Positions 76 through 24,726 of a DNA stretch of 64,000 nucleotides are shown here, piece by piece. How positions within the stretch are numbered: position 1 is the stretch's first letter; each line of letters starts with the position of its first letter. Origin of the DNA: Dehalococcoidia bacterium (GTDB lineage: Bacteria; Chloroflexota; Dehalococcoidia; Plut-88900); assembly GCA_965197585.1 (NCBI GenBank), contig OZ240215.1:1344001-1408000 (forward strand). Direction: 5' to 3'. The translations under genes and the position numbers were made by a program. The notes below the pieces were generated by a model. It was not told the origin of the DNA. It was given only the letters and a program-made list of their open reading frames with translations, and did not search any database.

Positions 76-1998
<1,923 letters not shown>

Positions 1999-2066: not shown

Positions 2067-2094
2067 CGGTGTAGGGGGGTGTCCCCTGCTCTTT

Positions 2095-3470: not shown

Positions 3471-3565
3471 TTATAGAATACATCAGGTTGTCAAGGGGTC
3501 ACACATAGGCATGGAAGTGGATGGTTGGTTGGTGGCGAGGCAGGTGTTGGTAGGGCCTACGCTTT

Positions 3566-5559: not shown

Positions 5560-5579
5560 CCGAGCCCCGGAGTTCAGTC

Positions 5580-7543: not shown

Positions 7544-7921
7544 TTTCCCTCGCTTAGCGGGTTCGGAATACCAACCCTGCATTCCCGCTTTACCCTTCGG
7601 ACGCCAAGCATAATTTGACAGCATGGAAACCGCAAACTTACAATTACCTGATATTCGGCCAAAAAGGCCGATCCAAGACGACTGTGGGAGATGGTGGAAA
7701 GTTTGGTTAATTCCACAGAGTTGGAATGCTTCTGTCCACTGACCCGAATGCTCGAAACTCTTCGGTTTCGGCCACAAAACGTTGCTGGCCGAGTCCTTTC
7801 CCCGTGGTCTTCGAAATCTAGGAGGTGGACTATGCCCGACACCTAGTCACCAACTTCCGTTCATTTGAAGACTCAGGGCAGGCTGCTTGGCCTGCAACCA
7901 ATCACAACGAAAGGCAGTGCA

Positions 7922-9304: not shown

Positions 9305-9327
9305 CATTTCCTGATACTGAATGAATA

Positions 9328-9365
9328 GGCGCCCTCCAAAAGGCCCACCCCCTTTGGAGGGCGCC
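9328..9365 (+). terminator. Intergenic hairpin between SBP1 and SBP2
   Basis: ggcgccctccaaa / tttggagggcgcc inverted repeat; no U-tract, so possibly a stabiliser rather than a terminator. Confidence 0.5.
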
Positions 9366-9403
9366 AAACCTGTCCCCCGTAGTTCCAGAGAAAGGGAGCA
9401 AAA

Positions 9404-10783
9404 ATGAAGAACATCTGCAAATATCCGGGCAAGGGCCTGACCCTGCGCAAGGGCATTTTGGCCCTCTTCGCAGTCCTGGCCCTTGCCTTACTTATCGCAG
9501 CCGCCTGTGGCGAAGCCGCAACCGTAACGCCGGAAGCAATGCCGGATGAGCCCACCGCCATGGCGGACGAGCCTACCGCTGTGGCAGATGAACCCACTGC
9601 CATAGCAGATGAACCCACTGCCATGGCAGATGAACCTACCGCTATGCCTGTGCCCACTGCCATGACGGAAGCTGGCGCCAGGCTGAGGTCCGAGTGGACC
9701 GTCGATAACCCGGCCACCCGTGAAGAGATTGAAGCCGAGCTAGCGAAGTACCGCGGCAGGAGCATCGTGTTCAGCTCCTGGGGCGGCGCCTACCAGTCCG
9801 CACAGCGCCAGGCATACGGCGTACCCTTTGCCGAACAGTTCGGTATTGAGATCATCGATGACAGTCAGCCCACCGTCGGCAGGGTCCGGGCCATGCAGGA
9901 GTCAGGCAACGTTGCATGGCACGTCTTCGACACCGGCGGCGGCTCCATCCATGCCCTGGCCAATGGCGGCTCCCTCGAAGAGCTGGACTTCAGCATCATT
10001 GACACCCGGGACTTCCTGGAAGTCCTTAAAGCTCCCTACATCGGTGGTGGCGGCATCACCTGGTCCGAGACCTGGGCCTACAACACAGACATCTACCCAG
10101 AGGGCTCCCAACCCCAGAACATGGCTGACATCTACGACACCGAGAAATTCCCGGGACGCCGTTCCTGGAGCCAGTTCCCGGACGCTGAGATAGTTTTCGC
10201 CCTGCTGTCTGAAAATCCTGACCTCATAAACAGCGCCGAGGGCAGAGCCAGTCTCTCAGCGCCCAACGAAGAGCAAGTAGACCGCGCCTTCGAGCTTTTT
10301 GAAGAGTACCGGGACCAGCCAAACATCTTCTGGACCACAGGGTCCGACTGCCCGCAGTTCCTTCTCAGCGGCGAAGCCGACCTGTGCACCAACTGGAACG
10401 GACGCATCTACGACGCCGCCAAAGAAGGTGCACCTCTAAAGATCTGCTGGGAATGCGGACACGTCCTGAACACAGACGGTTGGGGCATCATCAAGGGCCT
10501 CAAGGAGCAGGACCCCGAGACCTTCGAGCTAACACAGCTGTATATGGCCTGGACCTCCTTCCCGGAGATCAACTCCCGGATGGCCCAGTTCATCACCTAC
10601 GGCCCCGTCAACACCAAGGCGTTGGCAGCCCTGTCTGACCCCATCTACGATGAAGTCAGAGACGAGCTTCCTTCCTCGCCCACCAACATCCCATACGCCG
10701 TTATCAACAATGAAGTGCACCGGGCCGCAAACCTGGACGCTTGGCGTGAGAGATACGAGGCTTGGAAAGGCACACTGAATTAG
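9404..10783 (+). CDS. ABC transporter extracellular solute-binding lipoprotein, PotD-like (paralog 2)
   Basis: Same motifs as paralog 1; lipobox IAAAC. Confidence 0.9.
   Translation: MKNICKYPGKGLTLRKGILALFAVLALALLIAAACGEAATVTPEAMPDEPTAMADEPTAVADEPTAIADEPTAMADEPTAMPVPTAMTEAGARLRSEWTVDNPATREEIEAELAKYRGRSIVFSSWGGAYQSAQRQAYGVPFAEQFGIEIIDDSQPTVGRVRAMQESGNVAWHVFDTGGGSIHALANGGSLEELDFSIIDTRDFLEVLKAPYIGGGGITWSETWAYNTDIYPEGSQPQNMADIYDTEKFPGRRSWSQFPDAEIVFALLSENPDLINSAEGRASLSAPNEEQVDRAFELFEEYRDQPNIFWTTGSDCPQFLLSGEADLCTNWNGRIYDAAKEGAPLKICWECGHVLNTDGWGIIKGLKEQDPETFELTQLYMAWTSFPEINSRMAQFITYGPVNTKALAALSDPIYDEVRDELPSSPTNIPYAVINNEVHRAANLDAWRERYEAWKGTLN
9545..9649 (+). repeat. Five tandem 21-bp coding repeats (DEPTA[M/V/I]A)
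   Basis: Tandem repeat in the SBP2 linker. Confidence 0.88.
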
Positions 10784-10799
10784 TCTAGTTTGACATTGC

Positions 10800-10852
10800 A
10801 GGCGCCCCCCGGCAGGACTCCAAGCCTACGGGGGGCGCCTCTGTTTTTGTTT
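10800..10852 (+). terminator. Intrinsic terminator after SBP2
   Basis: aggcgcccccc/ggggggcgcct stem then ctgtttttgttt. Confidence 0.7.
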
Positions 10853-10941
10853 CAATGCTCTTGAAGAAAGGAGGAGTTTGCCACTGGTATTTTTGCAACC
10901 AATAGTATATGTTTTGTTGAATTAGAGTGAGGAGAGGAACT

Positions 10942-12333
10942 ATGACGATTGATGAAAAGCGTCTCCGCAGAGGCTCGATCTCTGGGAGGCGCTTATTCGT
11001 ACTTTTTACAGTGTTCACCCTTGCCCTGCTTATCGCAGCCGCCTGTGGCGAAGCCGCAACGGCAACGCCTGAAGCAATGCCGGATGAACCCACCCCCACG
11101 GCGATGATGGAAGAGGAGCCGGATGACGCAATGCCGGAACCCACGGCCGTGATGGAGGATGAGGAGCCGGATGATGCAATGCCGGAACCCACCGCAACTG
11201 CGGAAGCGATGGAAGAAACTGGCATCAGACCGAGGTCCGAGTGGACAGTCGATAACCCGGCCACCCGCGAGGAAATCGAAGCTGAGCTCCAAAAATATCG
11301 TGGTAGGAGCCTCGTGTTCAGTTCCTGGGGCGGCGCCTACCAGTCGGCCCAGCGCCAGGCCTACCTCATTCCCTTCAATGACCAGTTCGGCATTGAGGTC
11401 ATCGAAGATAGCACTCCGCTCCTCGGCAGGGTCCGGGCCATGCAGGCGTCGGGCAACATCGCCTGGCACGTATTTGACCAAGGTACGGGTACAATACACA
11501 ATCTCGGGAGGAACGGCTCCCTGGAAGACCTGGACTTCAGCGTAATTGACAACCGGGACTTCCTGGAAGTACTGAAGGCTCCCTACACCGCTGGTGGTGG
11601 CATCACCTGGTCCGAGACCTGGGCCTACAACTCCGATGTATACCCCGAGGGCAACCGGCCGACAATTATGTCCGACTTCTACGACACCGAGAAGTTTCCC
11701 GGCCGACGTGCCTGGGCCTACTACCCTCACCTCGAGATGAAGTTCGTGATTCTTGCCCAGAACCCGGAATTGCTCAACACATTCGAGGGAAGGGCCAGTC
11801 TGTCTGCTCTTAATCCCGAACAGGTGGACCGTGCATTCGAGCTCTTTGACGAATACGCGGACCAGATCGACCTGATATGGCAGACCGGCTCCGATTGCCC
11901 TCAGCTCCTGATAAGCGGCGATCTGGACATGTGCACCAATTGGAATGGCCGCATCTTCGATGCCGTCAGGGAAGGTGCACCCATCAATATCTGCTGGGAG
12001 TGCGGTCACCTCCTCAACACCGACGGGTGGGGCATCATCAAGGGCCTGAAAGATCAGGACCCCGAGGCCTTCGAGTTGGCCCAGCTGTTCATGGCCTGGA
12101 CTTCCTTACCGGAAATTAACGCTCGCATCTCTCAGTTCATCACCTACGGGCCGATAAACATCAAGTCTTTGTCTGCCCTTGACGCCCCTGAGTACGACGA
12201 AGTCAGGGATGAGCTTCCGTCATCTTCGGCCAACATCCCCTTCGCCATCCTAAATGACGAAGAGCATGCCGCTATCCATGATGACGAATGGCGGGAAAGG
12301 TACGCGGGGTTCATACAGACCTTGGGTCAGTAG
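10942..12333 (+). CDS. ABC transporter extracellular solute-binding lipoprotein, PotD-like (paralog 3)
   Basis: Same motifs; acidic EEPDDAMPEPTA linker repeats; GAGGAGAGG RBS. Confidence 0.9.
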   Translation: MTIDEKRLRRGSISGRRLFVLFTVFTLALLIAAACGEAATATPEAMPDEPTPTAMMEEEPDDAMPEPTAVMEDEEPDDAMPEPTATAEAMEETGIRPRSEWTVDNPATREEIEAELQKYRGRSLVFSSWGGAYQSAQRQAYLIPFNDQFGIEVIEDSTPLLGRVRAMQASGNIAWHVFDQGTGTIHNLGRNGSLEDLDFSVIDNRDFLEVLKAPYTAGGGITWSETWAYNSDVYPEGNRPTIMSDFYDTEKFPGRRAWAYYPHLEMKFVILAQNPELLNTFEGRASLSALNPEQVDRAFELFDEYADQIDLIWQTGSDCPQLLISGDLDMCTNWNGRIFDAVREGAPINICWECGHLLNTDGWGIIKGLKDQDPEAFELAQLFMAWTSLPEINARISQFITYGPINIKSLSALDAPEYDEVRDELPSSSANIPFAILNDEEHAAIHDDEWRERYAGFIQTLGQ

Positions 12334-12375
12334 TCCGGCGTAACATACGCTCACTATGTCCTAAAACGGCTAACT

Positions 12376-12408
12376 AGAGGGCGCACCGGCAGTGCCGGTG
12401 CGCCCTCT
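12376..12408. terminator. Hairpin between convergent SBP3 and epoxide hydrolase genes
   Basis: Perfect inverted repeat agagggcgcaccggc/gccggtgcgccctct. Confidence 0.7.
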
Positions 12409-12433
12409 CAGTTTGTAGGGTGCACTCCCCGTA

Positions 12434-13582
12434 TCAGCGAAATCCCCGGAAGAACTCCCGCATGTCCTCAGCTAGCCCATGAGGCGCCTCCATCGCCGCA
12501 AAGTGACCACCCTTGGGGAACTCCGTCCACCTCTGCACGTTATACGTTCGCTCCGCCCACTCCTTAACCGGTCGGTCCAGCTCCTCCGGGAACACCGCCA
12601 CGGCCGTCGGAACCCCTATCCCCTCTCCCTGGCTAAGGCGCCACCTGTCCTTCCGGGTCTCATAATATATCCGCGTGGACGCGTTAATCGTCTCCGTGAC
12701 CCAGTACAGAGTAATGTTTGTCAGTATCTGGTCCTTGGTGTAGACACTTTCAATGTCGCCGCTGCAATCGCTCCAGGAGCGCCATTTCTCTACTATCCAA
12801 GCCGCCAAACCCGCTGGAGAGTCGTTCAGTCCATAGGCCAGGGTCTGAGGTTTTGTCCCCTGTATGTGTCCATACGCACCCTCGTCCCGTTCCCATTGTT
12901 CGATCTCTTGGAGATATTGCTTTTCTGCATCAGACAGAGGCCGGGACCCGGGCCCCAGATAAGGGCTTCCACCCAGAATCATGTTGATATGGATGGCTTT
13001 CACTTTATCCGAGTGGCTGAACCCCAGTCTCGATGATATAGAAGCTCCCCAGTCTCCCCCCTGAGCCACGTAGCTTTCGTAGCCGATCTGGCTCATCAAC
13101 TTTGCAAACACGTCGGCCATGCCGTTGACACCCATCCCAGGAACCGAGGGCTTCTCCGAAAATCCGTACCCCGGCATTGAGGGCGCAACCACGTCGAACG
13201 AGTCCCTTTCGTCGCCGCCGTGGGCCGCGGGGTCGGTTAACAGGGGTATGAAGTCCAGAAACTCGACTATCGACCCCGGCCAACCGTGGATCAACAGCAA
13301 GGGCAATGGGTCGGGCCCTTTACCCCGTTCGTGGATGTAGTGCACGTCCAAACCATCCACTTCGTCAACGTATTGCGAGTAGCCGTTGATCACTTCCTCT
13401 TGCTTTCGCCAGTCGAACTCCTCGATCCAGTAGTCCACTAGCTCCTTCACGTATGCCAGGTTGGACCCGTAGTCCCACCCCGACCCCGGGATCTCGTCCG
13501 GCCAGCGCGTCCTCTTCAGCCGCTCCCGCAGATCTGTTAGAACATCTTCCTTTATGTCGACTCTAAACGGCCTGATAGCCAT
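12434..13582 (-). CDS. Epoxide hydrolase (microsomal type, EHN domain)
   Basis: HGWPGS, PSMPGYGFS, QGGDWG, GGHFAA. Confidence 0.95.
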   Translation of the reverse strand: MAIRPFRVDIKEDVLTDLRERLKRTRWPDEIPGSGWDYGSNLAYVKELVDYWIEEFDWRKQEEVINGYSQYVDEVDGLDVHYIHERGKGPDPLPLLLIHGWPGSIVEFLDFIPLLTDPAAHGGDERDSFDVVAPSMPGYGFSEKPSVPGMGVNGMADVFAKLMSQIGYESYVAQGGDWGASISSRLGFSHSDKVKAIHINMILGGSPYLGPGSRPLSDAEKQYLQEIEQWERDEGAYGHIQGTKPQTLAYGLNDSPAGLAAWIVEKWRSWSDCSGDIESVYTKDQILTNITLYWVTETINASTRIYYETRKDRWRLSQGEGIGVPTAVAVFPEELDRPVKEWAERTYNVQRWTEFPKGGHFAAMEAPHGLAEDMREFFRGFR

Positions 13583-13617
13583 GATCGTCCTCCGGAATTT
13601 GCATTGCCCGCATTTCT

Positions 13618-13815
13618 TCATTCATCACAGTTGGATTCGAGGGCCACTATCGTATCCACAAGCCTGCCCGCCCATTCCCTCAGCTCCTCTTCGATATCCG
13701 CTCCACAGTGGGCGCAGTCCAGGTCCCCGAATCGGAGGTTTATGCCGCAATCTCGGCACTCGGGTCTCTCGGACAATATTCTGAAAACTGTCTGAATCTG
13801 GGTCTCGGTAGCCAT
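13618..13815 (-). CDS. Small zinc-ribbon protein
   Basis: CRDC...CAHC in a 65-aa ORF directly upstream of, and co-oriented with, the epoxide hydrolase. Confidence 0.55.
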   Translation of the reverse strand: MATETQIQTVFRILSERPECRDCGINLRFGDLDCAHCGADIEEELREWAGRLVDTIVALESNCDE

Positions 13816-14000
13816 TTTCCCTCACTGCTGTCGTTGGTCAAGTCTGATGTCGGATGATTATCTTATACCACGCTCTCCATCGTAGGGCCCTTGCTCCCAA
13901 TGCCAGTACAACGGGCATCCCATTTGATGATATGATATCAAGTAACCAATTCTCATTCCGCTTCACCTGCTTCTCCCCCAAGGATTTCCACAAGCCAACT

Positions 14001-15743
14001 ATGCTCATCCCGCTTCAAAGGCTCTTGTCCCGTGACCGGTTCATAAACGGCAATACGGACAAAAGACTACTTCTCTTCAAGATCCGTCAGCAGGGCATTT
14101 ACCCCGCCCTGGCCCTTCCCGCTCTGCTTCTAATGGTCCTCTTCTTCATCATCCCACTGGTCAGAATGGTGGACGTCAGCTTCGGTGGGAATGACGGCTT
14201 CTCCCTCGCCTACTACGACAAGGCCCTGACTAACCCCATCTACCAGAGGATGTTCCGCACCACCTTCGAACTGGCTGCTTTTACCACCGTCGGTTGCATC
14301 GCTCTCGGATACCCCATCGCCTACTTTCTTGCCACCCGCACGGGCCGTTGGCACGGCGCAGTTCTCCTAATAGCCATAATTCCATTCATTACTAACTCCA
14401 TTGCGAGCGTCTACTCCTGGCGCGTGATATTCGGTAGACGCGGTCCCGTAAACGAGTTCTTGCAGCTCATCGGAGTAATAGATGACCCACTTGAAATACT
14501 CTGGAGCCGTTTCGCAGTAGAAGTCGGCATGATCCAGATTCTCCTTCCCTTCATGATTCTCCCACTCTACGCCGTCATGCGAAGTATCCCCAAGAGCCTT
14601 ACAGCCGTCGCCGAAAGTATGGGCGCCCATCCGATAAAGAGCTTCCGGCATATATTCCTTCCCCTGAGCCTTCCAGGAATCTGGGCCGGGTCCATTCTTG
14701 TGTTTATACTCAGCGCAGGCAGCGCCATCGCCCCGAGCATCCTGGGCGGCATCCGGGACCAGGGCATAGCTTCCTATCTGGCCGGAACCAGCGGATTCAG
14801 CGCTGCTCTTGCCGTGATCCTCCTTACCGCTATCCTCATCCTGTACATGATTTTCGCCCGGCTGGTCGGGTTCGGCTCCCTATATGGTGCCGGTGAGGCC
14901 CTCCTCCGCTCCTCTCCCATCGAGATCTCCTACCGCGCACCGCGGCGCATTTCTTTGAATGTCATGGTCGGGGCAGTTTGCATTTTTCTGGTCCTGCCCA
15001 GCCTCATAGTCATTCCCCTCGCCTTCAATGAGTCTTCTTTCGTCATTTTCCCTCCAAAGTCCTATAGTTTGGTCTGGATCAAAACCTTCTTCACTACCAG
15101 CGTAATCAGCCCCGTCAACTGGGTGGAGTCTACCTTCACCAGCCTCCAACTTGCCTTTATCACAGTCTTGGTCTCCGTGCCCGCCGGAGGCCTGGTCGCC
15201 TACGGAATTGCGCGAGGCTCCTTCCCGGGCCGCGGCTTTCTTGGTTCCTTTATAATCCTGCCCCTCATAATCCCCTCGACCCTCACTGCCATCGCTCTTT
15301 TCTACTTCTACTCCTTCCACATGCGGATACTTGTCGGCACCGTCATTGGCATAGCCATGCCCCACGCCGTTCTGGCAATACCCTATGTCGTCATCATCCT
15401 CACCGCCACCCTCCGAGGCGTCGACGAGGTCCACGAGCAGGCTGCCATGAGCCTCGGCGCTAATCGATTCACCGCTTTCCGGAGGGTTATCCTGCCCCAG
15501 ATAGTGCCCGGCATTACCGTTGCCACCTTTTTCGCGTTCATGGTCTCCTTCTACGAGGTGCCAATAGCCGTGTTCCTCAAGGACCCGTTCCTCAGGACCC
15601 TTCCCATGAATTTGTGGAACGGCGTAACCGTGGAATTTGCCCCTATGATGGCCGCGGTCTCTTTCATCCTCTTGATTTTCGCTGCTTTCATGCTTATAGG
15701 CTTGGTCTTTTTTAGAAGTCGCCTCTTTAAGCAGCGGACCTAA
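14001..15743 (+). CDS. Fused PotB/PotC-like ABC transporter permease (two TM modules)
   Basis: Two EAA-like loops (AVAESMGA, EQAAMSLGA) and about 12 hydrophobic segments; start uncertain. Confidence 0.88.
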   Translation: MLIPLQRLLSRDRFINGNTDKRLLLFKIRQQGIYPALALPALLLMVLFFIIPLVRMVDVSFGGNDGFSLAYYDKALTNPIYQRMFRTTFELAAFTTVGCIALGYPIAYFLATRTGRWHGAVLLIAIIPFITNSIASVYSWRVIFGRRGPVNEFLQLIGVIDDPLEILWSRFAVEVGMIQILLPFMILPLYAVMRSIPKSLTAVAESMGAHPIKSFRHIFLPLSLPGIWAGSILVFILSAGSAIAPSILGGIRDQGIASYLAGTSGFSAALAVILLTAILILYMIFARLVGFGSLYGAGEALLRSSPIEISYRAPRRISLNVMVGAVCIFLVLPSLIVIPLAFNESSFVIFPPKSYSLVWIKTFFTTSVISPVNWVESTFTSLQLAFITVLVSVPAGGLVAYGIARGSFPGRGFLGSFIILPLIIPSTLTAIALFYFYSFHMRILVGTVIGIAMPHAVLAIPYVVIILTATLRGVDEVHEQAAMSLGANRFTAFRRVILPQIVPGITVATFFAFMVSFYEVPIAVFLKDPFLRTLPMNLWNGVTVEFAPMMAAVSFILLIFAAFMLIGLVFFRSRLFKQRT

Positions 15744-15777
15744 AGCCGGCGATGAGATAGCAGTCCGGGAGGACACC

Positions 15778-16194
15778 ATGGACTACAACGATGCCCTCGC
15801 CTTTCTATCAGCCAACTTCGACGCCGTCGTCAACACCTTCAGAAAGTCCGGCGCCATCCAGTCCAGTGTGGTAAAGGCCGGGGCCTATCAGAACGGTGTC
15901 GTCTTCGTTGCCATCGGCAACTCGGCAAAGCTGAAAAATCTTGCCCGAGACCCCCGATGCACCGTCACCATCGTTAGTCCCCACTGGAACAGCTGGTGCG
16001 CCGTAGAAGGGAAGGTGGTGATTCGGGACTGGGACAACACAGACCACGAATCCCTTCGCATCGAACTACGTGAGACGTTCGTAGCCTGCGGGGGCGACCA
16101 CGATGACTGGGATGAGTACGACCGTGTGATGCGTGAAGACCGCCGAGCCATCGTAGTGGTCAAACCCGACCACATCTACGGACAGGGAGTTTAG
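15778..16194 (+). CDS. PPOX-class probable F420-dependent oxidoreductase (Rv1155-like)
   Basis: AKLKNLARDPRCTV, HDDWDEYDRVMREDRR motifs. Confidence 0.85.
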   Translation: MDYNDALAFLSANFDAVVNTFRKSGAIQSSVVKAGAYQNGVVFVAIGNSAKLKNLARDPRCTVTIVSPHWNSWCAVEGKVVIRDWDNTDHESLRIELRETFVACGGDHDDWDEYDRVMREDRRAIVVVKPDHIYGQGV

Positions 16195-16214
16195 GGAGGC
16201 AGGGCCAGTTTCGC

Positions 16215-17114
16215 CTAACCGAGTAGGTTGAGGGCCTTCGGCACTACCGATATTTCCGCAGGGGTCTCAGCCACCCGCTCTCCGTCTGCCCAGATGGGCA
16301 TCGGCGCCTCGGTCTCTACCTTTAGCCTCTTTACTCGGTGCATGGAAACCGCCGGGTTCTTTAGATGGCCGCCGCTGAAGACCCGGGGTAACATCATCAC
16401 CACCTCCCGCCTCGAAACCGATTTCACCAGGCAGACATCCAACATCCCGTCTTCCGGCTCGGCTCCCGGCGCTATCTTCATGTTCCCGCCGTACTGAGGT
16501 GTATTGGCAGTCGCCGTCAGGAATATTCTGCCCGAGTATTCGAAGTCTTCTCCGATTAGATGTACCTTTGCATCCTTGTATCGAAGCAGCTGGGCAAAGA
16601 TCGCATAAACGTAAGACGGCGTTCCCGAAAGTATGCGAGGCACGTGCCCGTCCGCAACGTACTGGCTCACCGCACTGTCGAATCCTAGAGTAGCTACCGT
16701 CGCGAAGTACCTGTGCCCGACTGAGCCCAAGTCTATCTGTCTCGAATCGCCGGCTAAAATCAGATCAGCTACGCCCTCGGGGGTATTGGGGAGATCCATC
16801 GCCGCGGCAAAATCGTTGCACCTGCCGGCAGGTATGATCCCAACGATAACTTCCGAGGCCAAAGAGTGATCCATCACTCCGTTGATCACTTCGTGCAGAG
16901 TCCCGTCTCCTCCGCAGGCCAGCACCCCAACACTTCCCTCCTCTACCGCCTTTCGCGCGAGTCTTTCTGCATCCCCAGAACGAGACGTGTACAGGACCTG
17001 GTTAGACACCTCAGCCGACGTCAGCAGCATCCCAGTCTGTGCTGCAAGGGCCCGACTCCTCCCTTTGCCCGACACAGGGTTAGCCACAATGGTCCATTTG
17101 GCCCCATTCCCCAT
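16215..17114 (-). CDS. Diacylglycerol kinase family lipid kinase (YegS/BmrU-like)
   Basis: NPVSG, GGDGTLHE, PAGRCND, YGG, ADGE. Confidence 0.93.
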   Translation of the reverse strand: MGNGAKWTIVANPVSGKGRSRALAAQTGMLLTSAEVSNQVLYTSRSGDAERLARKAVEEGSVGVLACGGDGTLHEVINGVMDHSLASEVIVGIIPAGRCNDFAAAMDLPNTPEGVADLILAGDSRQIDLGSVGHRYFATVATLGFDSAVSQYVADGHVPRILSGTPSYVYAIFAQLLRYKDAKVHLIGEDFEYSGRIFLTATANTPQYGGNMKIAPGAEPEDGMLDVCLVKSVSRREVVMMLPRVFSGGHLKNPAVSMHRVKRLKVETEAPMPIWADGERVAETPAEISVVPKALNLLG

Positions 17115-17117
17115 GCT

Positions 17118-18704
17118 TTACGTCACGTCGCAAAGGAAGATTGGCGGATAATGGTACAGTGATACCTCGGGAGACGGTCCTACCGTGTCCTTTGCCATCT
17201 CCAATGCCGTCGCTACGTCCGGCGCGGTCTCGTAGCCCAGCCGCTCGGCCACCGACTTGTCTTTCGCCCCCGCCACGATAACCCGGCCCAGGTACTCCTG
17301 CCCATAGCACGCCCAGTACCACATGTATAAGGGATGGACACCGTGATACGCGTACGATTCCCGGTACAGCTTCCGATACCGCTCGTCCGAGGCATAAGAA
17401 GCTTCAAACCTCTTCTCAATCTCAGCCGCGTCCCGGGTCTCGGGCAGAATGTTGTTGTAAAAATCGATATACGAGGGGTGGTGCAATGAGTTGAATCGCT
17501 CCTCCAGCGGGTGCGAAAACACCAGTACCCCGCCCCGCCTCACCAATGGCTTCCCCCGGTACATGTTAAAGCTGTAGCCGAGCGCGAGCGTGTGGATTAG
17601 CAGCGGATTCAGCAGCGAGTTCACGTTGTACGGGCAGAGATAAGGAAGGCCCATTACCACCACGTCGGCCTGGCCCTCCACCGGTACTGCCTGCTGCTTG
17701 AATAGACTCGTCAATATCTTCTCATGTACCAAGTCCGTGTCCCCCGCCGCGACATCCAGCAGTCCATATGGCGAGCGCAGGTTCTGGAATATCTGCCATC
17801 TTAAATAGAACGGCAAGATGTCCAGTGCCCTACGGTTGACCCCGAATGTCACCTTGTCTATGGCATTCCAGTCTGACTCCTGCTTTTGCAGGTGTGCCAA
17901 TATCGACGGAAACGTGTTCGAGGTAAGGGAAGTCTCTATCTTGAAGACGTTCAGATTCTTGGATACCACCTCTCCCATCCCATTTACCGAGTTATGCAAC
18001 GCGGACCGTGTCGGGTCCATGTATGACTCGCACCGCATCAGTGTATGCACATTGTGGTTGTGCCTGATGGTCTTGTAACTCACCAGTCCCGTGCTGATCG
18101 ACTTATGCCCACCATCCATCGAAGAGAGGTTGATGTTCACGTAAATCAACAGATCAGACTCCGCCACCCTATTCGATGTTTCCACCTCCTCACCCTTCTC
18201 AGTCATCCCGAGCACCACCAGGTCCTCCTCGTCCTCCGCATCAAAGTTGTACAACCTGTCAGGGTGGAATTCGTTGAATACCCTCTTGCCCACAGCCCGC
18301 TTTAGCTCGGAAGGAGTCATACGCCGATGTAGCCCCAGCGCGGCTACAAGGTGTACATCCTCGACACCATTCTCTCTCAACGTTCGAAGCACCGCTTCGA
18401 TGATCCTCTGGCGCAAGTCGGGCCTCTTCATCTGCGGCAGAGGCAGAGATATATCATCAAAAGCGATGGTTACCTTCATACCGGGCCGAAGCTGGTGGGA
18501 CAACGGGTCCTGACCCAAGGGGTTCTCTAATGCCTCAGCTATCGCCCCGTCCGCGTCTTCAATAGAGGGAAGGGCAGGCGGAGGATAGATTATGCGGCTC
18601 CCCACCGGCAGCTCCTCGAACCGGAATGCCTCCCCATGATGCATCAGGAATCGCTGTCCGGGCTTCTCAACCCGTTTAATCAACTTGCTCTTATCTATTT
18701 CCAA
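17118..18704 (-). CDS. Lactate racemase (LarA/DUF2088) domain protein
   Basis: ALENPLG, IAFDDIS, ALGLHR, GGHKS; probable TTG start behind AAGGGA. Confidence 0.8.
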   Translation of the reverse strand: MEIDKSKLIKRVEKPGQRFLMHHGEAFRFEELPVGSRIIYPPPALPSIEDADGAIAEALENPLGQDPLSHQLRPGMKVTIAFDDISLPLPQMKRPDLRQRIIEAVLRTLRENGVEDVHLVAALGLHRRMTPSELKRAVGKRVFNEFHPDRLYNFDAEDEEDLVVLGMTEKGEEVETSNRVAESDLLIYVNINLSSMDGGHKSISTGLVSYKTIRHNHNVHTLMRCESYMDPTRSALHNSVNGMGEVVSKNLNVFKIETSLTSNTFPSILAHLQKQESDWNAIDKVTFGVNRRALDILPFYLRWQIFQNLRSPYGLLDVAAGDTDLVHEKILTSLFKQQAVPVEGQADVVVMGLPYLCPYNVNSLLNPLLIHTLALGYSFNMYRGKPLVRRGGVLVFSHPLEERFNSLHHPSYIDFYNNILPETRDAAEIEKRFEASYASDERYRKLYRESYAYHGVHPLYMWYWACYGQEYLGRVIVAGAKDKSVAERLGYETAPDVATALEMAKDTVGPSPEVSLYHYPPIFLCDVT

Positions 18705-18756
18705 TACAGTTCCCTTATATCTCAGTGGCCTTCGCCGTAAGTGTAGCAAGCCCCGG

Positions 18757-19998
18757 TTAGTCGGGAAAGGTGAACACCATCTTTCCGCCCCCCAGCCTCC
18801 CCGCCCGACCCGCTTTCACAATTGCTTCCCGGTACCGCTTAATGGGAAACCTGTGACTCACTAGCCTCGACACCCCGGAACGGAAGTTTCCGTCCTTCAT
18901 GAGGTGTTTGGCCAGTTCGAACGTCTTCATCTCTTTGTCCACGGTCCGCTCTATCCCGTAAGCGTAAGAGCCTGTAAATCGCACCTCCTGGTGCCACAGG
19001 GGCGTCAGGTCGGCCTTCGCATCAGACGGCATTCCCAGGGCCACGAGCGTCCCGTTCTCCATCGTCCACCTCATTGCATCTTCCAGCGCTGCCGACGTGC
19101 CAACACACTCGAACACTACGGGAAACCCGCCCGAAACAGCCGGCTTCCCCCGAATGACCGACAGCACCTTCGCCCCGACCTCATCCGACAGCTGCGCATA
19201 TCCCCCCACACCAGCATCACATACCACGTTAGCTCCCAAGTCCATGGCCTTACGCTTCTGTGATTCGTATTTGGCCACAGCCACTATCCGGCATTCCGGT
19301 TGTAATGCTCTCAGAGCTGCAATGGTCAGCAATCCAACTACACCACACCCGACCACGAGCACGGGCCCCAACCCTTCTATCCCGGCCCTAAGCACTCCGT
19401 GAATAGCACACGATAGCGGCTCCAACAGCACTGTTGCTTCGTCCGAAAAGTGATCCGGCACTCGGTGCAGCTGCGCTGTGTGCGCCACGAACCGTTCTCC
19501 CCAGCCCCCCGGCAAGCTTCGGCAATACCCGATCTGCAGCCCCGCCGAAAATTCCCCTTCCGTGGTCCGTACGCAGTTAGCATACCGTCCCGCTGCACAT
19601 TGAGGGCACAAGTCGGGCATCCCCCTGACCGTGCAGCCTAAAGCCGGTTCGATTGCCACCCTTTCTCCTACCTGGAACTCTTTAACCCCTTCCCCCACCT
19701 CAATTATCTCCGCCACAACCTCGTGGCCCGGGACAAGCGGAAATGACGTAAAACCAGATAGATACAGGCTCCCCCTGCACATCACCACTACCAGGTCAGA
19801 CCCACAGATCCCACTCATAATCGTGCGCACCTTGACCCAATCTGGGCCCGGCAGCGCTGGCTCCTGCACGTCCTTCATCCGCAAAACAGCAGTCGGGCCC
19901 AAAGACAACCGTGGGAACCGTTTGGAAAGCGCCCTGGTCACCAGCCACCGTGGAATACTCTTGGAAACAACTAATGCCTTCACAGAAATCCGTCTCAT
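18757..19998 (-). CDS. Zinc-dependent alcohol dehydrogenase (MDR)
   Basis: GICGSD, GHE, structural Cys cluster, GCGVVG. Confidence 0.9.
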   Translation of the reverse strand: MRRISVKALVVSKSIPRWLVTRALSKRFPRLSLGPTAVLRMKDVQEPALPGPDWVKVRTIMSGICGSDLVVVMCRGSLYLSGFTSFPLVPGHEVVAEIIEVGEGVKEFQVGERVAIEPALGCTVRGMPDLCPQCAAGRYANCVRTTEGEFSAGLQIGYCRSLPGGWGERFVAHTAQLHRVPDHFSDEATVLLEPLSCAIHGVLRAGIEGLGPVLVVGCGVVGLLTIAALRALQPECRIVAVAKYESQKRKAMDLGANVVCDAGVGGYAQLSDEVGAKVLSVIRGKPAVSGGFPVVFECVGTSAALEDAMRWTMENGTLVALGMPSDAKADLTPLWHQEVRFTGSYAYGIERTVDKEMKTFELAKHLMKDGNFRSGVSRLVSHRFPIKRYREAIVKAGRAGRLGGGKMVFTFPD

Positions 19999-20060
19999 CC
20001 CCTCTCCCTCGATGGGAGAGGACTAGGGCCGTATGCTCGCTGAGGAGTGTGAGGGTATCT

Positions 20061-20750
20061 CTATCCTTTTAGGGTCCACCATCGCACCGGCCAATCCCTG
20101 GCACGGGCCAGCTTCTCCAATCTACGTTCCGGGTTTACCGCTATCGGATGCCCCACCATCTCCAGGAGCGGCAGGTCCGAAATGTCGTCCGCGTAGGCGT
20201 AGGAATCCGATAATGCCACCCCACATTTCTCCGCCCAGTTCTTTGCAGCCTCCGCTTTCCCGGCTCCACTCAGAGGTCCAAACTCCAATTCCCCCGTGAA
20301 TCGTTCCCCGTCCACCTTACCCCGGGACGCCATTACCTCGTCGACCCCCAGCAAGTCCCCCAGAGGCCTGACCATCTCCATTAGCCCGCCAGTAAGGAGC
20401 ACCACCTTGTGACCATCAGTCCTGTGTCGTTCCACCTCATCCCTCGCCTCCCTGAAGAGACGCCCGCCCCAGTAATCTGCGCCTCTCCTCTTAGCCCAGC
20501 CTACCAAGTCCCCCACCGCCGACCCGCGGTAGTTCTTAAAGAATCCCCTGATGAATTTCACCCTGTCAGTCCAGTCCGTCAGGGCGTAAAGGGGAATTCT
20601 GGGAGCAAAAGCCGCTAACCAGAGGCCTCGGCTCAATAAACCCTTACCTTCCAGAGCATAGTCCAGGTAAACGTCCAGCAGGTTTGAAGAGGCGATGGTC
20701 CTGTCCACATCAAAGAACGCTGCAACTCTGGCATTAGGCCTTCCCATCAA
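20061..20750 (-). CDS. HAD-IB family hydrolase/phosphatase
   Basis: FFDVDRTI motif I, AYADDISDLPLL motif IV. Confidence 0.9.
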   Translation of the reverse strand: MMGRPNARVAAFFDVDRTIASSNLLDVYLDYALEGKGLLSRGLWLAAFAPRIPLYALTDWTDRVKFIRGFFKNYRGSAVGDLVGWAKRRGADYWGGRLFREARDEVERHRTDGHKVVLLTGGLMEMVRPLGDLLGVDEVMASRGKVDGERFTGELEFGPLSGAGKAEAAKNWAEKCGVALSDSYAYADDISDLPLLEMVGHPIAVNPERRLEKLARARDWPVRWWTLKG

Positions 20751-23040
20751 GCGCCTCGACTGCCGCCTGAACTTCCCCGGTCACCTCGCGGCTCAACTCA
20801 CTCAAACCCTTGGCGTCAGCTCCATCGGACCTGCCCGCGAAGCAGATAGGCTCCCCAAAACGTATGGAGACTGGATGCCGCTTCACTCTTACCGTACCTT
20901 TAGGCATCGCTTTATGTGAGTCCTTGATAAACGCGGGTACGACGGGGGCCTCCGACATGAGGGCAAGGAACCCTATGCCGTTCTTGAAGGGCTGCATCCT
21001 TCCCGGACGACCCCTGCTCCCTTCCGGGTAGAAAACCAGTGCGTGCCCCTTTTCCAGCACCGCCAACGCCAACCCGAGCTCCTCTCGGGACGTCCCCTTC
21101 CTATCGAAAGGGATCGCCGTGAACAGTCCCCTCACCATTCGAGACATGAACCCGTTTTCGAAGAAGTAGTCCTTTGCCGCCACGGGGTGGACTTTCTCAC
21201 CTCTCCGCCCGAGAGCGTGAAATATCACCGGCGTGTCCATGTGGCTATTGTGGTTCGAAGCAATGATATAAGGCCCGGAGTCTGGAATATTCTCAAGTCC
21301 CTCACACCGGAAACCCGTCCACCACCTGATCGCCGATCTCATAAGAAAGAACAGAGCTTGCCCCCAACACCTGATCCACAGTGGGACCTTGAACCACCGC
21401 TCGGCCTCTACTCCGAATCCGGCATCGGAAACGCGGGCGCCGTTCCCCTTGGGCTCAGGGTCCATGCCGAGCAGGTACTTCTTCACACCCGGAATATGCA
21501 CATCCTGAAGGTAGGACTCCCAGTCCAGCTTACCGATATCGAAGTCAAAATTCTCCTTATCACTCTCGTGAAGCGCACCCATCACACTGCGGGTGTTGTC
21601 GGTGAGAAACTTGCAGTCTGCCTCGGCATACGGTCCGTACAACCTGCCGTACTGGTACAGCCTTTCTAGTGACACCATCTTCAATTTCAATCTGTTATGA
21701 AAGCGTCGGGTCCAAGGTGTGAAGGAAAGAGGCGCGGTAGCTGTGATGGCGGCTCGTAGGGGAAGCATGTAGCGCAGGCGGATGTGGCGAAGGAATTTGG
21801 GAGTAGTAGGAAAGGTAGGTTTGGTGAGCTTCCTTGCTTTCCCCCCCTCGTCCCCCGACACCGGGAAAGGGGCCCTCTGGAAATGCGCATCAACCTGGTC
21901 GGCGAACCCATCTAGCGTTATCGGATTCTCCATCCCTGAGGCAATCTGGTACACCTTTGGAGAGTCATTTACCGAGGCCTGCGCGACGATGGCCAATATC
22001 GCGTTAGCCACCATGTCAACGGGGATGATGTCCAGAATTCCGTCTCGTTTGCCCGGGAAATCGATCATGCGGCCCCGTCCGTAAGCCACTATCAGCGGGT
22101 CGAGCATCCGAAAACCGTTCAGCCAGCCCGGTACAGGCGCTTTCCAGGCCCCTTCTATTATGGCCGGCCTGATAATCGCCCCTTTCATCCCTCCAATGCT
22201 CCGCACAAACATCTGCTCGCCCATCGCTTTGGAGAAGGTGTACACGTCCTGCCAGCCGCGCCTGTGAGCCCATTCCATGCCAATCTTGCTCAGCTGCTTG
22301 TCCAGCCGCTCAGACTCGGCACGGCTAACCTGCTCCTTTGCTCCCCTCACCGACCCCGCCTTAGCCAGAATCGCCTCGATCTCCTTTTCCACATCGTAGT
22401 CTGTCTGGGGAATGCCGTTGATGTGCCCGACAGTACGGTTCGGGTCAGGCAGCTCCTCCGTAACAGGCCCTTTGCGAGTAGCATTCACATAGCAGGTAGA
22501 AACTTGGGCAAAAAACGGGTCCTTACATCCCTTTGCGAACTCAACCATTCGGCCAGGGCCCAATGTGTTCAATCTCACTGCCGTATCCAAAGGCGCATCG
22601 AAGGAGACGACCGCGGCGCAATGAATGATTATGTCGACTTCGCTTTGTAAACGTTCGTAAATTGCCGGGTCCAGGCCCAGGCCATCCATCGCCACGTCCC
22701 CTGAGACGGCATGGACCTTGCTATCGAAGAGGCTGTCGAAAGCATCTCCCATCCTGTCTTTCAACGGCTCGAAGATCTGGGATTCGAAGACTTCCTGCTT
22801 GAGTCTCTCGTCTATGGATATAGCTGTGGCCCCGGCCCGTGTCCTGGGTCTGACAAGAACGTAGACAGCCGCGATATCAGAAAGAAGGCTGAGCATTCTC
22901 TCCAGGAGCACCTTGCCCAGTAGGCCGGTGCCCCCTGTGAGGAGCACAGTCTTTCCTCTGTAGAAATCTCGAAGTGGTTGCAAGGAAGCCTGCTGGATAT
23001 CGTCTAGGTAGGGTGCAGGATTAGGTAAGGTCACGTACAT
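20734..23040 (-). CDS. Fatty acyl-CoA reductase (male-sterility type) fused to PlsC-type acyltransferase
   Basis: N-terminal TGGTGLLGK, YTFSKA, IRPAII, DIIPVD; C-terminal NHNSHMD (HxxxxD) and FYPEGSR. Confidence 0.88.
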   Translation of the reverse strand: MYVTLPNPAPYLDDIQQASLQPLRDFYRGKTVLLTGGTGLLGKVLLERMLSLLSDIAAVYVLVRPRTRAGATAISIDERLKQEVFESQIFEPLKDRMGDAFDSLFDSKVHAVSGDVAMDGLGLDPAIYERLQSEVDIIIHCAAVVSFDAPLDTAVRLNTLGPGRMVEFAKGCKDPFFAQVSTCYVNATRKGPVTEELPDPNRTVGHINGIPQTDYDVEKEIEAILAKAGSVRGAKEQVSRAESERLDKQLSKIGMEWAHRRGWQDVYTFSKAMGEQMFVRSIGGMKGAIIRPAIIEGAWKAPVPGWLNGFRMLDPLIVAYGRGRMIDFPGKRDGILDIIPVDMVANAILAIVAQASVNDSPKVYQIASGMENPITLDGFADQVDAHFQRAPFPVSGDEGGKARKLTKPTFPTTPKFLRHIRLRYMLPLRAAITATAPLSFTPWTRRFHNRLKLKMVSLERLYQYGRLYGPYAEADCKFLTDNTRSVMGALHESDKENFDFDIGKLDWESYLQDVHIPGVKKYLLGMDPEPKGNGARVSDAGFGVEAERWFKVPLWIRCWGQALFFLMRSAIRWWTGFRCEGLENIPDSGPYIIASNHNSHMDTPVIFHALGRRGEKVHPVAAKDYFFENGFMSRMVRGLFTAIPFDRKGTSREELGLALAVLEKGHALVFYPEGSRGRPGRMQPFKNGIGFLALMSEAPVVPAFIKDSHKAMPKGTVRVKRHPVSIRFGEPICFAGRSDGADAKGLSELSREVTGEVQAAVEALDGKA

Positions 23041-23154
23041 TGACAGGGCTCCGCCAGACCCGACGCATTATAATTTCCACACGCCCACTCGTCCATTGTC
23101 ACCCATTCCCCCGAGGTTCAGAAAAGTAGCCGTTATCCCGAGAATCCCGAGCCC

Positions 23155-23739
23155 TTAACCACGCCTTGCTTGAGCATCAGCGGCCAAGTGTCGGGCCACC
23201 TCCATCAGTCCTGTTACCCGAATAACGTTCTCCCTGTATTGATATCCCCGATTCCTTGGCCAGTCCCTCAGAAACACCCTCGACAGCCCCTTCCGGGACA
23301 GAAGATCGGCAACCCGGCCATCGTCATCTACGAACTCCTCAATCCCGAGTTCCGAGCACATATGCCACTTGAAGTCGGGAGACCGCAACCCCAGGTTGTT
23401 CGAATGCACTTCGCGGAACAGTTCGAGAAATCCATGCGCTTTCAACCATCCCTCTATTAACCCCGCTCCAAGCCCGTTCCGGCTGGTAACCAATACCGGG
23501 GTTCGGAACTCGCTGATCGATTCAATTCCCTCCCGAGCATCCTCCAGTGGCCTGCGCCCATAGTACTTGAACTTCAGCAACCACCTCATTGCCACAAGCC
23601 CGATGCCCGAAGGAGTTTCTCTTTTCTTCGAGTTGAGTGGACGGCTCTCGTACGGCCCCGGCGCTATCGGTATGTTTAGTCCGAAGGGAGGTCGGCAAAT
23701 TACACCGTCCATATCTATTCCTATCAGGGGTTTATCCAT
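23155..23739 (-). CDS. HAD-superfamily 5'-nucleotidase-like protein
   Basis: GIDMDGV, VTSR, FVDDD. Confidence 0.7.
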   Translation of the reverse strand: MDKPLIGIDMDGVICRPPFGLNIPIAPGPYESRPLNSKKRETPSGIGLVAMRWLLKFKYYGRRPLEDAREGIESISEFRTPVLVTSRNGLGAGLIEGWLKAHGFLELFREVHSNNLGLRSPDFKWHMCSELGIEEFVDDDGRVADLLSRKGLSRVFLRDWPRNRGYQYRENVIRVTGLMEVARHLAADAQARRG

Positions 23740-23850
23740 ACGCCAGCCTTTTCGGATACCATGTGTTCTACGGTCATTTTACCTTGAATGCCACTTTAGA
23801 AAGCTGCCCGTGTGTTAGTATCGGATCGTAGCTGCAAGGGAGGAAGAGAC

Positions 23851-24726
23851 ATGAAACAGCTTGGCCCCGAGCAAGTTTGCCACAGGTTCTCCGCCGAAGA
23901 CCCGCCCGGCCTTCGCGTCGAGTCCGGGGAGGTCTTCTTGGTAAGGACGACTGACCGGTTCCGGAACGTCTCCAAAACCGACCCCGACTTCGCAAAGTCA
24001 GACGTTGTCAGGTCTATGAACGGACCCATTTACGTTAACGGGGTCCGCGCGGGCGACACCCTCAAGGTTGACTTCCTTTCCATGTCCCCCGCCGAGCCCT
24101 GCGCCTACGTCCTTGCCCTTCCGGGTCACGGGGCACTGGGGAGCCGGATTCCCAACTTCCTGATGGAGACCGTAGACGTCACCGGTCTAGACGCGGTGTT
24201 CCCGAATGGCACGTCGGTCCCCTTAAGGCCCATGCTCGGCTTGATCGGCGTGGCCCCCGAGCATGGGGAAGCAGGACTAAGTGCAACCGGGCCTTTCGGA
24301 GGCCTGCTCAGCATCACAGACGTCACGGCAGGCTCAACCCTCTACCTGCCCGTGTTCCACGACGGCGCATTCTTGTCTATGGGAGATTCTCATCTCGCTA
24401 TGGGAGAAGGTGAGGCCACGAGTTCCGCCGTCGAAGGTTCGATGAGTATTACCCTCCGAGCCTCGGCTTCTCAAGAGGTAGAAGTTTCAGGCCCCATGGT
24501 AGTGACTCCCGAGCACGTGATTAGCTTCGGAAGAGGGGTCACCATGGAAGAGGCTGCTCACGCCGCCACCTTGGCCATGGCAGACCTCCTTATGTCGCGG
24601 CTGAACATATCCGCCCCTGACGCCGCAATGCTCATCGGCTGCGCAGCAGACCTGCGGACCGCTCTTGCCCTCCGTTCCCCCTACAGCATGAAGATGCTCA
24701 TGCCCCTCTCCACCCTACCCCTCTAA
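23851..24726 (+). CDS. Acetamidase/formamidase family protein
   Basis: NGPIYVNG...GDTL, GDSHLAMGEGE. Confidence 0.88.
   Translation: MKQLGPEQVCHRFSAEDPPGLRVESGEVFLVRTTDRFRNVSKTDPDFAKSDVVRSMNGPIYVNGVRAGDTLKVDFLSMSPAEPCAYVLALPGHGALGSRIPNFLMETVDVTGLDAVFPNGTSVPLRPMLGLIGVAPEHGEAGLSATGPFGGLLSITDVTAGSTLYLPVFHDGAFLSMGDSHLAMGEGEATSSAVEGSMSITLRASASQEVEVSGPMVVTPEHVISFGRGVTMEEAAHAATLAMADLLMSRLNISAPDAAMLIGCAADLRTALALRSPYSMKMLMPLSTLPL

Follow-up and report, generated by a model that had tools for sequence, protein, structure and literature searches.

We analysed a 64,000-nucleotide stretch of a Dehalococcoidia genome (here called the window; C1:1344001-1408000 of the one-contig genome G000, 3.43 Mb, 92% complete). 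Six tightly packed, co-oriented genes at positions 16215-23739 probably form, together with the working proposed for them below, a compact Dehalococcoidia variant of the bacterial ether-lipid biosynthesis (elb) cluster. The conserved module consists of a fatty acyl-CoA reductase (FAR), an acyltransferase (AT), a HAD-IB hydrolase, a LarA-family protein and a ketoreductase, which is here a Zn-dependent dehydrogenase, probably of the polyol type. We infer an ether-lipid product and a role of the LarA homologue in making it. This best-conserved gene of the set, encoding a putative nickel-cofactor enzyme, may carry out the ether-forming chemistry.

The six open reading frames (ORFs) lie on the minus strand at the coordinates given in a first-pass annotation made from the letters of the window. 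Read from the first gene to the last, the first two are separated by 114 nt, the fusion and HAD-IB genes overlap by 17 nt, and the following genes are 62, 7 and 3 nt apart. Domains were assigned with Pfam and NCBIfam at curated cut-offs, and structural relatives were taken from matches in the PDB. The features are as follows.

23155..23739, minus strand: candidate NT5C/FCP1-like HAD-superfamily hydrolase, 194 aa (DMDGV motif and Atlas feature neighbours)
23067..23095, minus strand: match to a sigma-70-type promoter (TGGACG-17-TATAAT), between the first gene and the fusion gene
20734..23040, minus strand: 768-aa fusion of FAR and acyltransferase, resembling ElbD minus its adenylation and carrier domains (Pfam, PDB, motifs)
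20061..20750, minus strand: HAD-IB hydrolase, 229 aa, putative ElbB counterpart (TIGR01490)
18757..19998, minus strand: Zn-dependent medium-chain dehydrogenase, 413 aa, probably of the polyol/sorbitol-dehydrogenase type (ADH_N and ADH_zinc_N)
17118..18749, minus strand: LarA homologue of group LarAH14/15/16, 543 aa, putative ElbC counterpart, presumed nickel-pincer-nucleotide enzyme (NF052592)
16215..17114, minus strand: YegS/DgkB-type lipid (diacylglycerol-like) kinase, 299 aa (TIGR00147)

The first-pass annotation had named all six products. Five of these identities are borne out by Pfam or NCBIfam families, while the HAD label of the first gene is backed by its DMDGV motif and Atlas feature neighbours. 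The same annotation had taken the genes for a lipid operon of the elb type, a proposal which is upheld by the acidobacterial clusters described below, as these have the elbB-C-D-E-type layout and share their protein families with the window.

The fusion protein contains the Pfam domains NAD_binding_4 (residues 34-348, E 1e-63), Sterile (459-524) and Acyltransferase (PF01553; 577-705, E 3e-23), and neither an AMP-binding nor a PP-binding domain was found in it by the Pfam and NCBIfam scan. It matches the fatty acyl-CoA reductase 7eoz (E 5.5e-80) and PlsC 5kym (E 1.4e-11) in the PDB. The reductase motifs GGTGLLG (36-42) and YTFSK (267-271) are present, as are the acyltransferase motifs HNSHMD (597-602) and PEGSR (672-676). 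This FAR gene is the only one in the genome. Alignment with a 1475-aa protein of ElbD architecture from the acidobacterial locus L163 gave two blocks: residues 15-524 correspond to 15-552 of that protein (29% identity, E 5e-65), and residues 514-767 to 1192-1448 (32%, E 9e-33). About 640 residues, comprising the AMP-binding (ligase) and PP-binding (carrier) domains, are skipped between them.

Locus L163 encodes a HAD-IB protein (230 aa), a Lar_N protein (531 aa), the 1475-aa protein (NAD_binding_4, Sterile, AMP-binding, PP-binding and Acyltransferase domains) and an NAD-dependent epimerase-type protein (345 aa). In the published accounts of Myxococcus xanthus, elbB encodes a HAD protein, elbC a protein of unknown function, elbD a protein with FAR, acyl-CoA synthetase, acyl carrier protein (ACP) and AGPAT-like domains, and elbE an NAD epimerase/dehydratase (PMC9131029, PMC13012113); ElbD is listed as UniProt Q1DC43 in 10.64898/2026.06.23.733905. 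As the layout of L163 is the published elbB-C-D-E layout, the fusion in the window can be read as a truncated ElbD lacking the ligase and carrier domains, as the first-pass annotation had suggested. By its position in such acidobacterial clusters, the LarA homologue would be the counterpart of ElbC. The first-pass idea that HAD and DUF2088 genes belong to elb clusters holds for the acidobacterial clusters, and for M. xanthus it fits the published description of ElbB as a HAD protein and of ElbC as a protein of unknown function (PMC9131029). Genetic data tie elbD and elbE to ether lipids: in the review's account, disruption of elbD strongly lowers the ether lipids of M. xanthus and inactivation of elbE lowers them as well, while the steps leading to the alkyl ether are given there as unknown (PMC9131029).

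Among 301 acidobacterial genomes, NF052592 scored above its cut-off in 23, and 32 matched at E <=1e-100; this tally includes the unpublished genome G450, which falls below the cut-off. Gene order was compared in 16 stretches from 15 of these genomes. The order HAD-IB, LarA homologue, FAR and, some 2 kb further on, AT, all on one strand, was found in 10 of 14 genomes and with the split copy of genome G401. Loci L164 and L169 have the HAD-IB and LarA genes only, and L172 and L173, which hold lower-scoring LarA relatives, have no partners. Identity to the proteins of the window is 44-47% for the LarA homologue, 31-39% for HAD-IB, 27-34% for FAR and 29-34% for AT. G401 is a Pyrinomonadaceae metagenome-assembled genome (MAG) in which the LarAH14/15/16 gene is split across two contig ends. 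It contributes the one non-Chloroflexota locus (L009) among those nearest to the window, encoding a protein with AMP-binding, carrier and acyltransferase domains, of which the acyltransferase is 28% identical to that of the window. Upstream of the elbB-C-D-E-type cluster of L163 (L163:5729-7602) lie genes for a CDP-alcohol phosphatidyltransferase and a family-2 glycosyltransferase, which are possible ether-lipid head-group genes.

The ligase-carrier segment and an ElbE-like short-chain dehydrogenase/reductase (SDR) co-occur in 10 acidobacterial loci, there never with a Zn-dependent alcohol dehydrogenase (Zn-ADH). Three loci on metagenome contigs (L063, L064 and L065) combine full-length ElbD with Zn-ADH, and L065 has a kinase gene upstream as well. 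In a tree of 41 LarA homologues, the window groups with L061, L063 and L065 (SH-aLRT 97), of which L063 and L065 have full-length ElbD plus Zn-ADH; separate groups are formed by loci with full ElbD and SDR (97) and by loci with a FAR-HAD fusion and Zn-ADH (96). The tree is a quick maximum-likelihood one (LG+G4, SH-aLRT support only), with an unsafe root on a long-branched paralogue, and leaves out rows with unknown architecture and those more than 82% identical to kept ones. Because full-length ElbD stands on both sides of the branch of the window, loss of the ligase and carrier domains fits this topology.

Conservation of the gene set is extensive in a synteny survey of the kind which the first-pass annotation had called for. 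The six-gene order is kept in all eight related Dehalococcoidia loci, with fusion proteins that are 72-98% identical; the LarA homologue is the best-kept gene among them (84-97%). Further afield, NF052592 was found above its cut-off in 15 of 401 sampled Chloroflexota genomes (the tallies for this family and for LarC include the unpublished genomes G038 and G227). About 20 kb was taken around 15 Chloroflexota LarA homologues, 14 of them above the cut-off and one a frameshifted copy in G240. Twelve of these 15 distant loci have FAR, HAD-IB, Zn-ADH, LarA homologue and AT in order, at 33-52% identity; of the other three, L047 is without Zn-ADH, L051 is a 5.9-kb contig and L059 has an SDR instead. 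Metagenome contigs, scanned with alignment A1 of 13 members of the family, yielded 80 loci, nearly all with the same neighbours. Of the 95 distant loci, 49 are flanked by at least 4.7 kb upstream and by at least 0.9 kb downstream of the LarA homologue. FAR was found in 46 of these 49, HAD-IB and AT in 48 each and Zn-ADH in 44, and all four partners accompanied the LarA homologue in 42.

The usual form of the module has a FAR+HAD-IB fusion (median 775 aa, 70 loci; confirmed with Pfam for L081) and a separate 313-aa acyltransferase (69 loci by ORF clustering). Three gene fusions thus occur across lineages, namely FAR+HAD-IB, FAR+AT and FAR+ligase+carrier+AT, and this variation in fusion partners indicates that the activities are tied together. 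Apparent Zn-ADH-LarA and LarA-AT fusion ORFs were rejected, as their tblastn frames differ and long spurious frames arise in G+C-rich DNA. A TetR gene downstream, found in 29 loci, is the only other widely recurring neighbour. Genes for D-Ala-D-Ala ligase, Mur ligase, aconitase, LysR and MFS proteins are neighbours in 9-14 loci each and look lineage-specific. Named members of the LarA-homologue family come from Dehalococcoidia, SAR202, Armatimonadetes, Gemmataceae and other Planctomycetes, and Fervidibacter; those of the FAR-AT fusion from Dehalococcoidia, SAR202, Trueperaceae and Opitutales; and those of the FAR-HAD fusion from marine Acidimicrobiales. The plasmid collection gave no match when searched with the LarA homologue.

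A few copies of the module deviate from the intact form. The LarA homologue of G240 (L060, G240:C211:45141-46612) is split into two frames at about model position 384-413, and the copy at G458:C3:469497-470609 has an in-frame TAA; both are possibly pseudogenes or assembly errors in otherwise intact cassettes. In L101, FAR, HAD-IB and Zn-ADH lie at 2-3428 and the LarA homologue follows 6.5 kb further on (10001-11578), so that this cassette is interrupted by inserted DNA.

The 543-aa LarA homologue contains a Lar_N domain and scores 796.4 bits against NF052592 (LarAH14/15/16; cut-off 740, model positions 2-519/520). Its length is counted from a TTG codon, and homologues point to a start about 15 codons downstream. 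Its nearest PDB relatives are the one-histidine LarA-like structures 9q2u/9q3j (E 1.6e-33 with the single sequence, 6.5e-56 with a profile), followed by malate and lactate racemases. Residues K216 (cofactor-tethering), H232 (Ni ligand), D98/D99 (ribose-binding) and H141 (first catalytic), which align with Lys184, His200, Asp72 and His108 of LarA, do not vary across 13 diverse members. At His174, the second catalytic histidine of LarA, the protein has Asn207, so that the two-histidine racemase site is not kept; this agrees with the absence of that histidine from LarA groups 14 and 15 as given in section 2.1 of PMC12611868. Arg75 of LarA, which binds carboxylate or phosphate, is Leu102 here and invariant as such in the 13 members. 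The C-terminal domain is larger than that of LarA and bears HHPSY and AYHGVHPFYMWYW motifs. For a related Asn subfamily, binding of phosphorylated sugars is suspected in section 2.6 of PMC12611868. The "LarAH15" of PMC11770544, described there as a Phytophthora gluconate epimerase, follows a different numbering and is not to be equated with the LarAH14/15/16 group.

The genome also encodes the machinery for the nickel-pincer cofactor, as the first-pass annotation had asked to be verified: the larB, larC and larE set is present, with scores all above the cut-offs (NF033503, 291.9 bits; TIGR00299, 200.2; TIGR00268, 333.4). These genes lie outside the operon, with larE and larC at C1:561609-563976 and larB at C1:1438270. 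LarC occurs in 219 of 401 Chloroflexota genomes overall versus all 15 carrying LarAH14/15/16, a contrast that is no statistical test because the carriers are kin; it is also present in G240. Eleven genomes of family f41 keep LarC and have the cassette gene as their sole LarA-family match, which argues that the cofactor serves the cassette enzyme. A co-expression system for obtaining protein loaded with this cofactor is described in PMC11796402. G000 has a second LarA paralogue (482 aa, C1:726526-727974, 33% identical), which adjoins genes for an Amidohydro_2 protein and a luciferase-like monooxygenase. Half-scoring paralogues resembling it occur in G264, G212 and G228. It represents another orphan LarA group in a non-lipid context and, as its neighbours are not lipid genes, is uninformative on the operon.

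The remaining core members are consistent with steps on a glycerol-type backbone. The 229-aa protein scores 125 bits against TIGR01490 (cut-off 98.3), has DVDRT at residues 14-18 and is nearest to 3fvv and then to phosphoserine phosphatases in the PDB; a HAD-IB gene adjoins the LarA homologue in 48 of the 49 flanked distant loci. The 413-aa protein has ADH_N and ADH_zinc_N, both above the Pfam cut-offs, with GICGSD (63-68), GHE (91-93) and CPQC (131-134), and no NCBIfam equivalog scored above its cut-off. In the PDB it comes closest to sorbitol, xylitol, L-arabinitol and threonine dehydrogenases. Since these relatives act on a secondary alcohol beside CH2OH, a keto/hydroxy step at C2 of a glycerol-type backbone would fit.

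The two outermost genes behave differently. The 299-aa kinase has DAGK_cat and YegS_C domains, 164.1 bits against TIGR00147 (cut-off 118.65) and GGDGT at 68-72. The first-pass annotation had counted it as an operon member, and this holds for the close relatives: a kinase gene is linked to the LarA homologue in all eight close loci and also in L061, L062 and L065, whereas it is linked in none of the 49 flanked distant loci. Diacylglycerol kinase genes that adjoin elb-like clusters are described for sponge symbionts (10.64898/2026.06.23.733905). The first gene, too, is found in eight of eight close and none of 49 distant loci. Its DMDGV motif spans residues 9-13 and its Atlas feature neighbours are NT5C/FCP1-like (score 0.93-0.97), while Pfam and NCBIfam gave no family match, Pfam not even at E 10. 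The protein is tentatively assigned to the HAD superfamily, and its gene is a lineage-specific upstream neighbour, possibly on a separate transcript.

We propose the following working for the operon. FAR would reduce acyl-CoA or acyl-ACP to a fatty aldehyde or alcohol, and would have to accept a free thioester because the ligase and carrier domains are absent. The PlsC/GNPAT-like AT would load an acyl group onto triose or glycerol phosphate. The nickel enzyme could then act on the phosphorylated C3 backbone in a step that needs no alkylglycerone-phosphate synthase (AGPS) and allows ether linkage of the alkyl chain, with the nickel-pincer cofactor made by LarB, LarC and LarE serving as a hydride shuttle or electron sink and not in a racemase. 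The Zn-dehydrogenase (ElbE elsewhere) would set the C2 alcohol and the HAD-IB enzyme would strip the phosphate, after which the YegS-type kinase may, in this lineage, send alkyl(acyl)glycerol back to the phospholipid pool. More specifically, the LarA homologue might itself be the ether-bond catalyst, with an acyl- or hydroxy-triose phosphate as substrate and with the nickel-pincer nucleotide as its hydride shuttle or electron sink; the five-domain core, even without ligase and carrier, would suffice for making 1-O-alkylglycerolipids from acyl thioesters and a C3 phosphate. We put this forward tentatively, as a possibility that is weaker than the assignment to the elb type.

Other genes of ether-lipid and wax metabolism were sought in G000. 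No AGPS-like protein was found by a PF02913 search of this 92% complete genome. The matches to this family (FAD-oxidase_C) were a GlcD-like protein of 480 aa, a YdiJ-like protein of 971 aa and a weak third; the 480-aa protein is closer to glycolate oxidase (best PDB match, E 3e-88) than to AGPS (E 3e-22). CarF/PEDS1 (PF10520) was not found either, a result of little weight as the control genomes also gave no match. Because no CarF/PEDS1 homologue was found, saturated 1-O-alkyl glycerolipids and not plasmalogens would be expected. A search for WS/DGAT (PF03007) gave no match, which carries little weight since the search had no positive control.

Several points weigh against the assignment of the region to the elb type and against the working proposed for it. 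The putative orthology of these proteins to ElbB, ElbC, ElbD and ElbE is drawn from domain architecture, the acidobacterial cluster and published descriptions. The Zn-dependent medium-chain dehydrogenase/reductase (MDR) occupies the slot held by the SDR ElbE in canonical clusters, and a shared role is presumed, as the two enzymes are not homologous; moreover, five of the 49 flanked distant loci show no Zn-ADH. The first gene and the kinase are lineage-specific additions outside the conserved core. Three loci (L067, L068 and L106) have no partner at all, although in L067 and L068 the sequence upstream of the LarA homologue runs to 10 kb. Cofactor binding by this protein is deduced from the other conserved ligands, because the Arg that binds the cofactor phosphate is Leu here. 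The absences of AGPS and CarF are provisional given the completeness of the genome. Published results add to these points. A Frankia LarAH14 was inactive in all seven assays, each of a 2-hydroxy-acid reaction, listed in Table 1 of PMC7583248. For M. xanthus, the review's account of elb states that the FAR and AT activities of ElbD are undemonstrated in vitro, puts the elbB phenotype down to polarity and describes no elbC mutant (PMC9131029). Pontiella isolates with ElbD homologues showed no ether lipids according to PMC11868695.

Of the alternatives, the one that survives best, though we consider it unlikely, is that the module produces or modifies ester lipids derived from fatty alcohols (wax esters, alkyl esters or acyl-lysolipids) with no ether bond, the LarA homologue and the dehydrogenase acting on a small polar head-group precursor. 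A FAR and an acyltransferase are formally enough for such an alcohol-plus-ester route, and both the in vitro status of ElbD (PMC9131029) and the lack of ether lipids in Pontiella (PMC11868695) are compatible with it; the TetR regulator downstream in 29 loci suggests conditional use rather than housekeeping. However, the AT is of the PlsC type (5kym, E 1.4e-11) and not WS/DGAT, of which G000 yielded no match in the search without positive control, leaving the wax esters envisaged by the first-pass annotation unsupported. The module with full ElbD shares its layout with the M. xanthus cluster that genetics has shown to be needed for ether lipids (PMC9131029), and a phosphatase and a polyol-type dehydrogenase suit a phosphorylated C3 backbone better than a wax route.

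An ether-lipid route in which the LarA homologue inverts a stereocentre, of the backbone or of a 2-hydroxy intermediate, and another component makes the ether bond is improbable in our view. The first-pass annotation had raised epimerisation of the backbone as one option, and it is true that all characterised LarA enzymes are racemases or epimerases in the accounts of PMC7583248 and PMC11770544, and that unidirectional one-histidine epimerisation is suggested for the related Asn subfamily in section 2.5 of PMC12611868. The active site nevertheless disfavours inversion, with Asn207 for His174 and the invariant Leu102 for Arg75, and the seven 2-hydroxy-acid reactions on which LarAH14 was inactive (PMC7583248, Table 1) point the same way. 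In addition, the five-domain core offers no other ether-forming candidate, and AGPS was not found in the genome.

Very unlikely is a module that builds a non-glycerol lipid, for instance one based on the long-chain 1,2-diols of some Chloroflexota and Deinococcota, in which FAR would reduce a 2-hydroxyacyl intermediate after the LarA homologue has acted on it. Diol lipids occur in Thermomicrobia, Thermus and Truepera, and the Trueperaceae names among the FAR-AT fusions are circumstantial evidence in favour of this reading. The core, however, has no carbon-adding enzyme, and LarAH14/15/16 gave no match in the Thermus and Deinococcus control genomes. The module is also abundant in marine Acidimicrobiales and in Acidobacteriota, groups for which we know of no reports of diol lipids. 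Finally, that the genes are neighbours by chance or through an annotation artefact is refuted by the synteny counts (order kept in eight of eight close loci, four partners in 42 of 49 distant loci) and by the three different fusions.

Observations on expression are limited. The promoter-like site at 23067-23095 is the sole one in 15700-24300; as shuffled sequence gives a mean of 3.2 such sites, it is a consensus match only. Contigs from RNA libraries (two runs of one study, from relatives 90-95% identical) partly cover the LarA homologue, dehydrogenase, HAD-IB and fusion genes, which is weak evidence of transcription, since DNA may also be present in such libraries. These runs, X21 and X22, leave the kinase gene and some bins uncovered, to which no evidential weight is attached. 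A hairpin of 32 nt (CCTCTCCC-loop-GGGAGAGG) lies at 19997-20028, between the HAD-IB and Zn-ADH genes, and overlaps the ribosome-binding region of the latter. It recurs as a dispersed repeat in G000, with 21 copies at <=2 mismatches, 50 at <=4 and 132 core hairpins, and looks like a repetitive extragenic palindromic (REP)-like element. Contigs of the two RNA-library runs stack on it with loose ends on both sides, to a summed depth of about 3500-3700 versus <=15 beside it.

Elsewhere in the window, a gene for an F420-dependent PPOX-class oxidoreductase (TIGR03618, above cut-off; 15778-16194) converges on the end of the operon. Positions 7865-15743 hold three tandem paralogous SBP_bac_8 solute-binding proteins (479, 459 and 468 aa) followed by a 629-aa fused PotB/PotC-like double permease, with an epoxide-hydrolase-like gene (12434-13621) on the opposite strand between them. 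A luciferase-like monooxygenase is encoded at 5472-6728.

The locus bears on how alkyl ether lipids are made independently of AGPS in aerobic bacteria. The producers of the widespread environmental bacterial ether lipids have been proposed mostly from matches to ElbD, Ger and Agps, as PMC11868695 and 10.64898/2026.06.23.733905 describe. Chloroflexota as a phylum are not new in this respect, as ElbD homologues are reported in 37 of 558 Chloroflexota MAGs in PMC11868695. New are the truncated ElbD, the Zn-ADH in the place of ElbE and the linked kinase. A link of LarA/DUF2088 proteins to ether lipids or to FAR was not found in the literature searched, although the supplementary neighbour tables of PMC7583248 might already show the context. 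The locus would represent a minimal elb module that can do without the ligase and carrier domains and whose reductase slot can be filled by unrelated enzymes. Its most conserved partner belongs to an orphan nickel-pincer enzyme group, which would thereby gain a concrete substrate class and is a candidate for the ether-forming step. If the LarA homologue is the ether catalyst, ether-lipid synthesis would depend on nickel in Chloroflexota, Acidobacteriota, marine Acidimicrobiales and myxobacteria. As a marker set we suggest LarAH14/15/16 beside FAR, HAD-IB and AT, which would catch producers that searches with full-length ElbD miss.

Comparison with known systems places the operon nearest to elb. 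PlsA/PlsR and Ger are members of another family of enzymes, sensitive to oxygen, which reduce a pre-existing ester. Like these systems as described in 10.64898/2026.06.23.733905 and PMC11868695, the module would provide a bacterial, AGPS-independent way to ether glycerolipids, but no PlsA/PlsR/Ger-type family is among the Pfam and NCBIfam assignments of its six proteins. With FARAT (Tetrahymena FARAT and M. xanthus MXAN_1675) the fusion shares an N-terminal FAR and a C-terminal glycerolipid acyltransferase in one polypeptide (PMC13012113, PMC9131029). FARAT is partnered with the flavoenzyme AGPS, and MXAN_1675 adjoins the AGPS gene MXAN_1676 in the same sources, whereas in G000 no AGPS-like protein was found and the partners are HAD-IB, a LarA homologue and Zn-ADH. 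LarA itself resembles the window protein in its Lar_N domain, tethering Lys, Ni-ligand His, ribose-binding Asp and first catalytic His, and in the larBCE genes of the genome; it differs in the residues at Asn207 (second His) and Leu102 (Arg75) and in its context of acid and sugar metabolism rather than lipid genes. The elb cluster of M. xanthus (elbABCDE) has in common with the operon the one-strand arrangement, the HAD phosphohydrolase, a multidomain enzyme with FAR and AT and an NAD(P)-type reductase; elbC, of unknown function, would take the position of the LarA homologue (PMC9131029, PMC13012113). In contrast to that cluster, the operon has a 768-aa fusion instead of an enzyme of about 1475 aa (the ElbD type of L163), without acyl-ligase and carrier; it contains no ElbA, it replaces the SDR ElbE by a non-homologous Zn-dependent MDR, and it adds a lipid kinase.

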